DNA of 64,000 bases from the UHGV virus genome UHGV-0098755; one strand, given 5' to 3'. This DNA comes from a virus. The position numbers and the translations under genes were made by a program. Shown piece after piece: positions 42,076 to 43,427 of the stretch; the stretch's first letter is position 1, and the number at the start of each line of letters is the position of its first letter. The notes below the pieces were generated by a model. The model was not told the DNA's origin, did not search any database, and saw only the letters and a list, made by a program, of their open reading frames with translations.

Positions 42076-42654
42076 TTAATTACCACGGGCTGCATTAGCA
42101 ACGGCATAAGCGTACTGAACATTAGCGTCCTTAAACGTACCTTTAGAGGTATCTATTTCTGCCTTAAAGCCGCCTTTAGCCATAACATCGGCAAATTCTT
42201 TACGGAAAGCCATTGCATCAAGACCTTTCCATGATGATTTGTGCTTAGCGAATTCAAGACCAGCGTAGTTGACAGCCTTAGCTAATTTATTATCAATGAC
42301 CCATTTACCGGCTTTAGGCACAAACTTCGGGCCTTTTTGTTTAGAGAACAGTTTTAAATTCCAGCGACGAAGGTCACTGTCGGCTTTAACAAAAGCTGCG
42401 TCTAAGTTACTAGCAACAACATCTTCAATATGAGCAAATTTAAGTCCGTCAACTTCAATATTTAGATCGTTACGCCAGCGAAGTCCTTCCCAAGCGAAGG
42501 CTTTAAAGTCGGAAGCCTTTGTAGCTAAGTACCGTTCAATAGGAGCTGTTTTAGGGTCAAAGCCGTTTCCCGATCGGTAGGTCCACTCATCTTTATTAAT
42601 GCCTTTGGCCTTTACTATAGAAGCTTCGGCAATAAATTCTTGATAGGTTTTCAT
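42076..42654 (-). CDS. ipIII: Internal protein III (capsid-targeted)
   Basis: 192-aa basic ORF beginning MKTYQEFIAEA (capsid targeting sequence); length close to T4 IPIII. Confidence 0.8.
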   Translation of the reverse strand: MKTYQEFIAEASIVKAKGINKDEWTYRSGNGFDPKTAPIERYLATKASDFKAFAWEGLRWRNDLNIEVDGLKFAHIEDVVASNLDAAFVKADSDLRRWNLKLFSKQKGPKFVPKAGKWVIDNKLAKAVNYAGLEFAKHKSSWKGLDAMAFRKEFADVMAKGGFKAEIDTSKGTFKDANVQYAYAVANAARGN

Positions 42655-42677
42655 GTGTTTCCTTGTTTGTTTTGATA

Positions 42678-42716
42678 GAGTAATTATACCATATTAATAC
42701 TTAAGCGTAAACCGTT
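42678..42716 (-). promoter_or_regulatory. T4-type early promoter upstream of ipIII
   Basis: GTTTAC (42707-42712), TGGTATAATTAC. Confidence 0.7.
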
Positions 42717-42976
42717 TAAGCTTTACCGCCAGAAATAATTCCGAAGTTGTTAAAATCATATCCAATATCGTCAACATCTACTTTAGGACTTGCTACAACA
42801 TAAGCAATTTCACTACGTTTTGCACAGGTGTTGATTTCTTTACCATCGCCACCTAAGAAAGAATACCCATTACGTTTTAATGAGCCAAAGTCTTCCGCAT
42901 CACCAATGAAAGCTTTAACTTTAAATTTAGAACCTTTGGCATCTGCTTCAACGATAAATTCTTGATACATTTTCAT
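42716..42976 (-). CDS. Internal-protein-like small protein with capsid targeting sequence
   Basis: 86-aa ORF beginning MKMYQEFIVEA; own early promoter upstream. Confidence 0.65.
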   Translation of the reverse strand: MKMYQEFIVEADAKGSKFKVKAFIGDAEDFGSLKRNGYSFLGGDGKEINTCAKRSEIAYVVASPKVDVDDIGYDFNNFGIISGGKA

Positions 42977-42982
42977 TTTTCC

Positions 42983-43180
42983 TTAGTAAATTGATTTACC
43001 AAAGTATTTGTACCAAGTCGGACGTTGATCAATTTTTTCATCTAAGCGTGCTTGATTTATCGCAATGGACGCTTCGGACGGGTCATAATTTCCTCCAAGT
43101 AGTTGATGAATATATAGTATCAAAACCCTTGGAGGAAGTAAACAACTATTTTTCTGAAGCGCCTGAAATATATTTTTCAA
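42983..43180 (-). pseudogene. denV: denV (endonuclease V) 3' remnant
   Basis: Last ~35 codons ([36 protein letters not shown]) match the T4 DenV C-terminus as recalled; upstream codons are unrelated and contain an early promoter. Confidence 0.6.
43108..43146 (-). promoter_or_regulatory. T4-type early promoter inside the denV remnant
   Basis: GTTTAC (43138-43143), 17 nt, GATACTATATATTC. Confidence 0.65.
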
Positions 43181-43427
43181 GACGTTGTTTCATCAGCGAG
43201 CCGTTCTTAGCGATTTCTTCCGGTTTATCGCACATACGCAACAAGGCTTCAAGCTTAACGATATCACTGGTGCGCTCAAATTTGCGAGTATCTATCTTAC
43301 TAGCAAGTTCAGAAATACGTGCTAATAGACTTTCAGCTTCAACCAAAGCTGCACCTAGCTTAGTTGCAAATGTGTCAGTAGCTTCGTTAAGAATAGATTC
43401 TGATAAAAATTCACTATATGTTTTCAT
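43146..43427 (-). CDS. Internal-protein-like small protein with capsid targeting sequence
   Basis: ORF 43146..43442; likely start [11 protein letters not shown] at 43425-43427 overlapping the e stop (ATGA). Confidence 0.6.

Follow-up and report, generated by a model that had tools for sequence, protein, structure and literature searches.

The interval between e and vs.8 is one of the two known variable loci at which T-even phages encode proteins that are packed into the prohead and co-injected with the DNA. Polymorphic ip genes are traced by PMC12373910 to Repoila et al. (1994), cited there as the original description. In the 64,000-nucleotide stretch of virus genome UHGV-0098755 analysed here (the window), this interval contains three internal-protein (IP) genes in an order different from that of phage T4. 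This raises the questions of whether the locus is a peculiar rearrangement with a novel gene or a recognized form of the cluster, how its genes would be expressed, and what their products might do after injection. We conclude, with a probability of roughly 0.85 for the identity of the locus and its genes, that it is the known variable IP gene cluster in the e-to-vs.8 interval of a Tequatrovirus. It comprises an Ip5-family gene (93 aa), an unnamed 86-aa IP gene and an orthologue of ipIII (Ip3), placed around a dead denV. The cluster is real but ordinary and already known, and nothing in its family or layout is new.

Results

Capsid targeting sequences and predicted cleavage sites

As the initial annotation had stated, minus-strand ORFs of 192, 86 and 93 aa all begin with a match to MK[TM]Y[QS]EF[IL]xE[AS] (Table 1). 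The looser motif MKx[YFW]x[ED]F is found in five ORFs of the window, each on the minus strand, compared with a mean of 0.02 in shuffled sequences (n = 100). It has been established experimentally that targeting needs residues 4 and 7 (Tyr/Phe4, Phe7) and processing residues 8 and 10, and that the specificity of the prohead protease gp21 is L/I-X-E (PMC9026906). Y4 and F7 are present in all three ORFs, within MK[TM]Y[QS]EF. The gp21 cleavage context expected behind the capsid targeting sequence (CTS) is likewise present in each protein, as an L/I-x-E motif ending at residue 10 (IAE10, IVE10 and LSE10). In the Ip5 family, the site kept across the window, VR20 and T2 is at position 15 (LNE15), and two more L/I-x-E motifs are conserved at residues 30 and 40; if these were cut, the Ip5-like protein would occur in fragments and not be delivered whole. 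The predicted mature pI is 9.7 for the 192-aa protein, 6.4 for the 86-aa protein and 6.3 for the 93-aa protein. The latter two are near neutral, whereas T4 IPI, IPII and IPIII are basic (pI 9.0-9.7), small basic proteins being typical of classical IPs without strictly defining them. These N-terminal motifs make it probable that all three products are packaged in the head and delivered along with the DNA; the literature searched yielded no proteomic data on these families.

Table 1. Features of the e-to-vs.8 interval, with positions in the window
Feature	Position	Strand	Identified by
Two T4 late-promoter boxes TATAAATA upstream of e	43946-43939, 43933-43926	minus	exact matches
e, T4-type endolysin, 162 aa; final codons and stop run into the start of the next gene	43424..43912	minus	Pfam Phage_lysozyme
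Ip5-family IP gene, 93 aa; L/I-x-E ends at residues 10 and 15	43427..43146	minus	PHROG 3499, Ip5 alignments
Surviving denV early promoter, TTTACT-17-TACTAT, TG upstream of -10	43142..43114	minus	Lutter homologue annotated as promoter
denV pseudogene	42983..43086	minus	alignment with intact denV of Lutter
IP gene of unnamed family, 86 aa, MKMYQEFIVE/A (predicted cut after E)	42976..42716	minus	PHROG 2667
Sigma-70-type early promoter of ipIII, TTTACG-17-TATAAT, TG upstream of -10	42711..42683	minus	consensus scan
ipIII (Ip3) orthologue, 192 aa, MKTYQEFIAE/A (predicted cut after E)	42654..42076	minus	T4 IPIII similarity, PHROG 5341
Hairpin AGGCCT-loop-AGGCCT just after ipIII, terminator candidate	42073-42056	minus	terminator scan
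12-nt junction scar TTCAAATAACAT right before the conserved vs.8 flank	42037..42048	minus	window, T4 and T2 side by side

Identity of the genes

The 192-aa gene, taken for ipIII from the start, is confirmed as such: its product is 95% identical to T4 IPIII over 181 mature residues and matches PHROG 5341 over its full length (E 8.8e-118). The two proteins (192 aa here, 193 aa in T4) share the same 10-residue targeting sequence. The gene lies beside vs.8 at the far end of the cluster, whereas in T4 it directly follows e, and its upstream promoter region is unlike that of T4, homology beginning only at the ribosome-binding site.

The neighbour of e was initially regarded as novel; it proved to be a member of the Ip5 family. 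Its product matches PHROG 3499 ('internal head protein', E 1.2e-46), and the mature part is 49% identical to T2 Ip5 over 72 residues (E 2e-17; first 11 residues removed), 94% identical to a VR20 gene annotated ip5 and 100% identical to a Mosigvirus copy. Matches on genes annotated Ip5 in T2, RB51 and VR20 were obtained by tblastn. The protein is present in 233 records at an identity of at least 95%; at a query coverage of at least 80% there are 491 records, 239 of them with an identity of at least 80%. Homology to Ip5 of T2, T6 and RB51 covers the whole mature part, with the same type of N-terminal signal and the L/I-x-E motif at residue 15. The 93-aa protein differs from Ip5 (84 aa) in its greater length, in the additional cleavage motif at residue 10 and in a mature form that is near neutral and not basic. 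Ip5 of T2, T6 and RB51 is encoded at the ipI locus (57B to tRNA genes), whereas the 93-aa gene is at the other IP locus; this e-linked version is also found in VR20 and a Mosigvirus. The reported ATGA overlap was found at 43427-43424, where the ATG of the 93-aa ORF shares letters with the TGA of e. The e product matches Phage_lysozyme with E 1.9e-13, and e is colinear with T4 e from 43429 upward at 95% DNA identity, its C-terminus reading KAYI here and DAYKNL in T4. No good Shine-Dalgarno sequence precedes the 93-aa gene at normal spacing.

The 86-aa protein matches PHROG 2667 ('internal head protein', E 1.9e-19). Its family comprises 217 phage records, usually annotated "internal head protein", with homologues in VR20, S16 and a Mosigvirus; remoter relatives were also found, and the targeting sequence is present in them too. 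The gene begins 7 nt past the denV remnant; AAGGAAAA lies 0-7 nt upstream of its start codon. The copy in the window is intact, whereas that of Lutter is frameshifted; in UFV13 the gene appears split, so it is dispensable in some phages. Assignment of the protein as a divergent IPI or Ip7 was dropped after ten IP families, compared profile against profile over their mature parts, showed no relationship to one another; the PHROG 2667 match is not confirmable as Ip7 homology.

According to an alternative named in the initial annotation, the genes could simply be T4 ipII and ipIII in conserved order. This held for ipIII, of which an orthologue is present, and failed for ipII and for the order. 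The mature parts of the 86-aa and 93-aa proteins gave no BLASTP match to T4 IPII at E ≤ 0.01 and nothing above 20% probability in hhalign, and the only DNA match to T4 ipII is a 42-nt segment of ribosome-binding site and targeting sequence. T4 IPI* and Ip2 likewise have no similarity to either protein beyond the targeting peptide (BLASTP, profile-profile). They do share the delivery logic predicted here, namely an N-terminal targeting sequence, gp21 cleavage, small size and accessory, highly variable genes.

None of the three IPs matched Pfam, PADLOC gave no match, and a PDB sequence search gave no match of meaning (best E 0.14 to 1.2, unrelated proteins). AlphaFold2, run on shallow alignments, predicted a helical 93-aa protein with moderate confidence (pLDDT 72.7, pTM 0.35), for which Foldseek found no match in the PDB at E ≤ 0.001; the model of the 86-aa protein (pLDDT 41.5) was unusable. 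These predicted structures are too weak to back any mechanism. All three IP genes are under purifying selection, with dN/dS values between 0.14 and 0.34 (93-aa gene, 0.14-0.34, and 86-aa gene, 0.20-0.23, both over deep comparisons; ipIII against T4, 0.16).

The 93-aa and 86-aa genes flank the denV remnant, as had been stated before. denV was lost by a frameshifting 310-bp deletion, not a multiple of three, between two AATTATG repeats, which joined the start codon out of frame to the last ~34 codons. The leftover in frame is a 9-codon ORF (MTRPKRPLR and stop), compared with about 138 codons for the intact ORF, and PHROG 1183 endonuclease V matches the C-terminal part of the remnant only. The same deletion junction occurs in about 16 records.

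Gene order and its distribution

Both flanks of the cluster are colinear with T4, and the claim that the gene order is unlike that of T4 was borne out. From e, the window has the 93-aa gene, the denV remnant, the 86-aa gene, ipIII and vs.8; T4 has ipIII, ipII, denV and vs.8. The view of this order as a peculiar rearrangement had to be replaced by that of a common alternative layout in at least three genera. The order e–Ip5-like–denV–IP recurs in Tequatrovirus, Mosigvirus and Gaprivervirus, the layout occurs in hundreds of sequenced relatives, and the whole locus is matched in one piece at 97–98.5% in several phages. At a query coverage of at least 80%, the junction from the 86-aa gene through the promoter to the CTS was found in 179 records, the ipIII/vs.8 junction in 48 and the T4-type junction after e in 212. 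The T4 layout is thus just one among several that are common.

Lutter (Tequatrovirus), vB_EcoM_VR20 (Gaprivervirus) and vB_Eco_mar005P1 (Mosigvirus) share their e-to-vs.8 backbone with the window: e, an Ip5-like gene overlapping it, a denV that has its own promoter, a gene homologous to the 86-aa IP gene, more IP genes and vs.8. denV is intact in these three phages, in contrast to the pseudogene in the window. The last cassettes vary: VR20 has ip10 and ip7, the Mosigvirus two different ORFs with a targeting sequence, and the window and Lutter ipIII.

Promoters and hairpins

It had been proposed that each of the three IP genes has its own promoter. Only ipIII was found to have a strong sigma-70-type site of its own; the 86-aa gene inherits the denV promoter, the only one upstream of it, and the 93-aa gene has none. 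The ipIII promoter is the best minus-strand site of the promoter scan (10/12 positions), which overall returned 12 sites against 10.6 expected from shuffled sequences, that is, no excess. Its homologue in Lutter is annotated as a promoter, and no significant hairpin accompanies it (z -0.6). The denV promoter falls below the threshold of the consensus scan. It lies within a hairpin in which the denV Shine-Dalgarno sequence is paired (-20.5 kcal/mol, z -3.6), and T4 denV has the same GTTTAC...GATACTAT layout.

The two TATAAATA late boxes sit inside a hairpin masking the ribosome-binding site of e (-14.9 kcal/mol, z -3.3), and the ~100 nt upstream of e are identical in the window and T4. No other exact TATAAATA lies between 42000 and 44000. 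A late promoter before each IP gene was rejected, exact boxes being present only at e in both this interval and T4. The hairpin after ipIII (-11.6 kcal/mol, z -4.2) is followed by a weak T run. Rfam gave nothing above noise on 41300-44500, and the 129-nt gap after ipIII was rejected as a known RNA on this ground; it consists of a frameshifted 5' part of vs.8 and the hairpin.

Probable traces of recombination

The breakpoints mapped against T4 lie in the shared repeat of ribosome-binding site and targeting sequence and at gene ends, and none is inside a promoter hairpin. T4 colinearity resumes at 42036, next to the junction scar, an exact match to the T2 ipIV 3' end with three bases added. The gene order was probably produced by recombination at repeated ribosome-binding-site/targeting-sequence DNA and promoter hairpins. 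PeSL cassettes, composed of an early promoter together with a stem-loop, mediate the shuffling of modules in T4-type phages (Arbiol et al. 2010, PMC2839356). The locus resembles them in the stable hairpin around the denV promoter and in behaving as an array of shuffled single-gene cassettes; by eye, the T4 ipII, ipIII and denV promoters have the same promoter-hairpin design. It differs from them in the position of the breakpoints, outside promoter hairpins, and in the ipIII promoter. Promoter and stem-loop coincide at denV (z -3.6) and not at the ipIII promoter (z -0.6), the hairpin after ipIII (z -4.2) being a separate one.

Discussion

The promoter-like sites suggest how the cluster would be expressed. 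Late transcripts would start at the two TATAAATA promoters upstream of e and probably continue past the denV remnant, through the 86-aa gene and ipIII, to the hairpin behind it, while the sigma-70-type promoters before the denV remnant and ipIII would add early transcription. The Ip5-like gene would be translated by coupling to e via the ATGA overlap. The targeting sequence, with its Tyr4 and Phe7, would direct each protein into the scaffolding core, where gp21 is predicted to cut after L/I-x-E, at Glu10 in all three and at the conserved site Glu15 in the Ip5 family. As in T4, the mature proteins would stay in the head and pass into the cell along with the DNA.

The initial annotation regarded IPs as anti-defence candidates on the strength of at least one T4 IP, and experiments now cover T4 Ip2 and Ip3 besides Ip1. 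Each of the three inhibits a distinct GmrSD type IV restriction enzyme (PMC12373910, PMC9391042). Ip3 is needed on ECOR17, and its T4 allele inhibits the ECOR17-type GmrS1/GmrSD2 system (PMC12373910). By analogy with T4, the most likely function of the Ip3 orthologue in the window is to block an ECOR17-type GmrSD type IV restriction enzyme encoded by two genes, and we hold this with good confidence. The phage carries gene 42, a-gt and a ba-gt homologue, a glucosyltransferase set of the T2/T6 type, unlike that of T4. This gene content predicts glucosylated hmC DNA, the substrate of GmrSD-type enzymes.

For the other two proteins the target is less clear. Eight GmrSD variants were not reproducibly inhibited by ip4 to ip10 of T4-like phages, among which an Ip5 is presumably present, so a GmrSD target for the Ip5-like protein is putative. 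Most likely, the Ip5-like and 86-aa proteins would serve as inhibitors of other first-line defences; we consider an anti-defence role for the two conceivable at somewhat below even odds. We also put forward, tentatively and with more doubt than belief, that the interval from e to vs.8 may constitute a second 'injected anti-defence island', whose cassettes are reshuffled within and between T-even genera at the ribosome-binding-site/targeting repeat. The near-neutral Ip5-like and 86-aa proteins may then form a distinct class of injected inhibitors against defences beyond the GmrSD subtypes tested so far, and the tie of the Ip5-like gene to endolysin translation may be an adaptation that limits synthesis to the assembly phase.

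Other explanations of the locus deserve consideration. One is that a T4 locus was rearranged in a peculiar, lineage-specific way, acquiring a novel IP-like gene and three independent transcription units with their own promoters. The order does differ from the T4 reference, and promoter-like sequences do lie upstream of ipIII and the denV remnant. However, the same order is found in three genera, the supposedly novel gene is an Ip5-family member (near-)identical in hundreds of records, and of the three supposed units one is promoterless and overlaps e while another only inherits the denV promoter. This explanation is already largely refuted, and we regard it as very improbable. The 93-aa and 86-aa ORFs, or one of them, might also be decaying remnants that are no longer expressed or packaged, their targeting-like N-terminus being a relic of cassette recombination. 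A pseudogene neighbour, the frameshifted 86-aa gene of some relatives and the poor Shine-Dalgarno sequence of the 93-aa gene would fit such decay. Against it, both ORFs are intact in the window and constrained in deep comparisons, the 93-aa protein is highly conserved across records, and the ATGA overlap offers a route of translation that needs no Shine-Dalgarno sequence. Decay is accordingly a most unlikely account of these genes.

A less improbable, though still unlikely, explanation is that the 93-aa and 86-aa proteins are packaged and fill the core or scaffold during head assembly, or that gp21 degrades them as it does gp22, gp67 and gp68; they would then not be injected anti-defence effectors. 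The extra conserved L/I-x-E motifs of the Ip5 family at residues 30 and 40 point in this direction, but a motif so short is estimated to arise by chance about once per 80-100 residues. The lack of a GmrSD target found for ip4-ip10 would suit an assembly role; every T4 IP for which a target has been found, on the other hand, is a specific type IV restriction inhibitor. T4 IPIII mutants show slower head assembly and smaller bursts (PMC9026906), which also favours a structural contribution. The families themselves are patchy, swapped between loci and genera and sometimes broken, which fits accessory genes of an arms race and does not fit assembly factors. We therefore retain the reading of the locus as a variable cluster of IP genes whose products are probably injected.

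In conclusion, the window provides a clean example of this gene class, with five targeting-sequence genes in one phage. The T4 gene order is not universal, which matters for annotation, as many records still say 'hypothetical protein'. Two of these genes belong to the widespread and conserved Ip5-like and 86-aa families. Because IPs reach the cell before any phage gene expression, they would be the earliest counter-defence of the phage. Since all three T4 IPs are specific inhibitors of type IV restriction, the uncharacterised families are sensible targets for work on host range and phage therapy.

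Organization of the locus

The internal-protein locus belongs to a Tequatrovirus (T4-like) genome segment in which the minus strand carries nearly all genes. Its features are listed in the table. The initial annotation observed something real here and mostly read it accurately: its coordinates and ORF lengths, the ATGA overlap between e and the 93-aa ORF, and the denV remnant were all correct. All three ORFs open with the capsid targeting sequence (MKMYQEFIVEA in the 86-aa ORF). Within the 64 kb a looser form of the motif occurs in five ORFs, each of them on the minus strand, whereas 100 shuffles gave a mean of 0.02, so the signal is not due to chance. 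Loci of this kind are nevertheless known, the configuration is common, and databases already have all three genes at an identity of 100% or close to it. Neither the rearrangement nor any of the internal proteins is new, and the genes do not form three independent promoter units.

Features of the internal-protein locus between e and vs.8
Feature	Coordinates	Strand	Remarks
Two exact late-promoter boxes (TATAAATA)	43946-43939 and 43933-43926	minus	upstream of e
e (endolysin)	43912..43424	minus	Pfam Phage_lysozyme
93-aa ORF	43427..43146	minus	ATG shares ATGA with the TGA of e
denV remnant	42983-43086	minus	between the 93-aa and 86-aa ORFs
86-aa ORF	42976..42716	minus	
Sigma-70-type promoter, TTTACG-17-TATAAT	42711..42683	minus	5' of the 192-aa ORF
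192-aa ORF	42654..42076	minus	starts MKTYQEFIAEA
Hairpin	42073-42056	minus	3' of the 192-aa ORF
vs.8	41946..41359	minus	after the hairpin

The reference order in T4 is e, ipIII, ipII, denV, vs.8. When the window was compared with the T4 segment by BLAST, both flanks proved colinear, the vs.8 flank as far as 42036 and the e flank from 43429 onward, and the order between them differed from T4 as had been noticed, with the strand unchanged. The alternative of T4 ipII and ipIII in conserved order does not hold: the ipIII cassette (3318-3926 in the T4 locus) has moved to adjoin vs.8, and the ipII match is limited to a 42-nt segment of ribosome-binding site and targeting-sequence codons. This ribosome-binding-site/targeting-sequence segment forms a three-copy direct repeat in the locus (100, 84 and 72% identity over 32 nt). 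Of T4 denV, no more than the final ~90 nt remain, at 82% identity.

Alignment with phage Lutter revealed that denV has lost 310 bp by a clean deletion between two AATTATG repeats of 7 bp, one spanning the start codon and the other lying about 98 codons in. The denV promoter (TTTACT-17-TACTAT), the Shine-Dalgarno sequence and the ATG are all retained, and the frame ends after nine codons. Since about 16 database records have the same junction, a UV-repair-deficient allele appears to circulate among natural isolates. T2 is likewise without an annotated denV at the e locus.

In vs.8, the ~25 N-terminal codons of T4 (MRDSRQPVIRSSPSAVMGKYRNGQF) are found at 41909-42010 in a frame different from that of the main ORF (195 aa, 41359-41946), and a shorter protein is annotated in other records. 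Either vs.8 is frameshifted in the window or the T4 start is over-extended.

Frequency and exchange of the layout

The order had been taken as a rearrangement of the locus, but it is not new. In 235Ecol030PP, Phaginator, G8, Shinka and B1.1 the entire locus of 2 kb, denV deletion included, is matched in a single piece at 97-98.5% identity. A backbone of e, the overlapping Ip5-like gene, denV, the 86-aa homologue, more internal-protein cassettes and vs.8 is shared by Lutter (Tequatrovirus), VR20 (Gaprivervirus) and mar005P1 (Mosigvirus), although denV is intact in these three. T2 differs in having e, ipIV and a truncated vs.8-like ORF, and S16 in having e, an ipIV-like gene and the 86-aa homologue without denV. 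Rough counts with junction-spanning queries (records at 80% query coverage or more) gave 179 records in which the 86-aa gene is joined via the promoter to the following internal-protein start, 48 with the ipIII/vs.8 junction and 212 with the junction of T4 type after e. These counts and the recurrence in relatives indicate that the layout is a frequent alternative, T4 having only one among several arrangements.

The module of e, the Ip5-like gene, denV and the 86-aa gene (42625-43945) matches that of mar005P1 at 89-95% DNA identity, against only 77-84% for the flanking genes; for the 93-aa gene, dS is 0.03 and the protein is 100% identical. This closer match of the module than of its flanks to the Mosigvirus suggests recent transfer between genera. 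In addition, the 12 nt at 42037-42048 (TTCAAATAACAT), just before the conserved vs.8 flank, equal the last codons of T2 ipIV, its stop and three bases, which suggests that an ipIV-type cassette may formerly have occupied this slot.

The three internal proteins

The 192-aa protein, with 95% identity to T4 IPIII in the mature part and a match to PHROG 5341 (E 8.8e-118), is the IPIII/Ip3 orthologue.

The 93-aa protein had been called novel, but it belongs to PHROG 3499, 'internal head protein' (E 1.2e-46). Without its first 11 residues it has 49% identity with T2 Ip5 (E 2e-17), 94% with the VR20 ip5 annotated beside e, and 100% with the mar005P1 copy. In 233 phage records tblastn finds it with an identity of at least 95%, adjoining e in every record of this group among the matches listed, and at ~47-51% in genes annotated Ip5 at the other internal-protein locus.

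The 86-aa protein represents an unnamed family of 217 records, VR20, Mosigvirus and Salmonella phage S16 among them, in which it is entered as 'internal head protein' or 'hypothetical protein'. When 1.84 billion representative proteins were searched with a profile, only 12 matched, five of which (P0018, P0019, P0020, P0023 and P0025) are divergent proteins with targeting-like N-termini such as MKTYNEFIAE, MQTFHEFLVE and MKSFDQYIME. KNGY-F, GKNS and DF..FG are shared motifs of these relatives, one of which is 194 aa long with an extra C-terminal half; jointly they would represent a wider internal-protein domain family without a name. In Lutter a one-base insertion splits the homologue (1819-2074 of its locus) and two 'internal head protein' ORFs are annotated; in UFV13 the homologue matches in two pieces under two annotated ORFs. 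Some lineages can thus do without the gene.

Outside the targeting peptide the internal-protein families did not resemble one another by BLASTP or hhalign. In deep comparisons dN/dS was 0.14-0.34 for all three genes, and this purifying selection indicates that they are real genes. Structure prediction was of no help for the 93-aa and 86-aa proteins.

In T4 IPIII the first 10 residues are enough to direct packaging, targeting being influenced by residues 4 and 7 and processing by residues 8 and 10; gp21 cleaves after L/I-X-E (PMC9026906). All three proteins have the targeting residues at 4 and 7 and an L/I-X-E motif ending at residue 10, so that the expected cleavage context is present. In the Ip5 family the motif kept in the window, VR20 and T2 (LNE or ITE) ends at residue 15; Ala16 is therefore the probable first residue of the mature 93-aa protein, perhaps following an initial cut at Glu10. 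The 86-aa and 93-aa proteins are near neutral (pI 6.3-6.4), not basic.

The classical ipI locus contains two further targeting-sequence ORFs, at 51319..51047 and at 50985..50677 on the minus strand. One, of 90 aa, belongs to PHROG 7673 ('internal head protein') and starts MKTYQEFIAEA; the second, of 102 aa, is 99% identical to T2 Ip7. With the three genes studied, the phage encodes at least five internal proteins. T4-type ipI and ipII were not found within the window.

Promoters and expression

A promoter for each gene had been proposed, but only ipIII has its own, a good early-type one. The 86-aa gene starts 7 nt past the denV stop, with the denV promoter now ~135 nt 5' of its start codon, and appears to be served by that promoter. 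Within 43078-43146 (minus strand), this promoter lies inside a hairpin that is stable (-20.5 kcal/mol, z -3.6) and whose 10-bp stem (TTCCTCCAAG / CTTGGAGGAA) also pairs the denV Shine-Dalgarno sequence. It resembles the promoter and stem-loop (PeSL) cassettes described for T4-type phages (PMC2839356), and, judged by eye, the T4 ipII, ipIII and denV promoters have similar inverted repeats.

The 93-aa gene has neither a promoter nor a well-spaced Shine-Dalgarno sequence, and its start overlaps the stop of e; it may be translated through coupling to e. The ~100 nt compared, with the 5' hairpin and promoters of e, do not differ from T4, and across this interval T4 too has exact late-promoter boxes upstream of e only. 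Transcripts that start at the late promoters of e and read through as far as the hairpin behind ipIII would allow assembly-time expression of all three genes.

Implications for anti-restriction

T4 requires ipIII for infection of ECOR17 (Srikant et al., PMC9391042), and Ip1, Ip2 and Ip3 each block a different GmrSD type IV restriction enzyme without cross-protection (Silas et al., PMC12373910). The window encodes gene 42 and a-gt and, instead of T4 b-gt, a beta-glucosyl-HMC-alpha-glucosyltransferase of T2/T6 type, and the phage is thus predicted to produce the DNA substrate relevant to GmrSD enzymes. The transferase homologue is at 2864..3712, minus strand, in the b-gt position (PHROG 842, E 1.9e-89). 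The phage pairs a T2/T6-type modification set with a T4-type Ip3; T2 and T6 are reportedly without Ip3 (PMC12373910).

Given its orthology to Ip3, the published inhibition by Ip3 and the DNA substrate, the 192-aa protein is very likely a GmrSD(ECOR17)-type inhibitor. The proposal that the internal proteins are anti-defence candidates is borne out by T4 data for Ip3; for the 93-aa and 86-aa proteins we only infer such a role. In published work ip4 to ip10 gave no reproducible inhibition across eight GmrSD variants (PMC12373910). The residual interest lies in the 93-aa and 86-aa proteins, which are widespread, conserved and probably injected.
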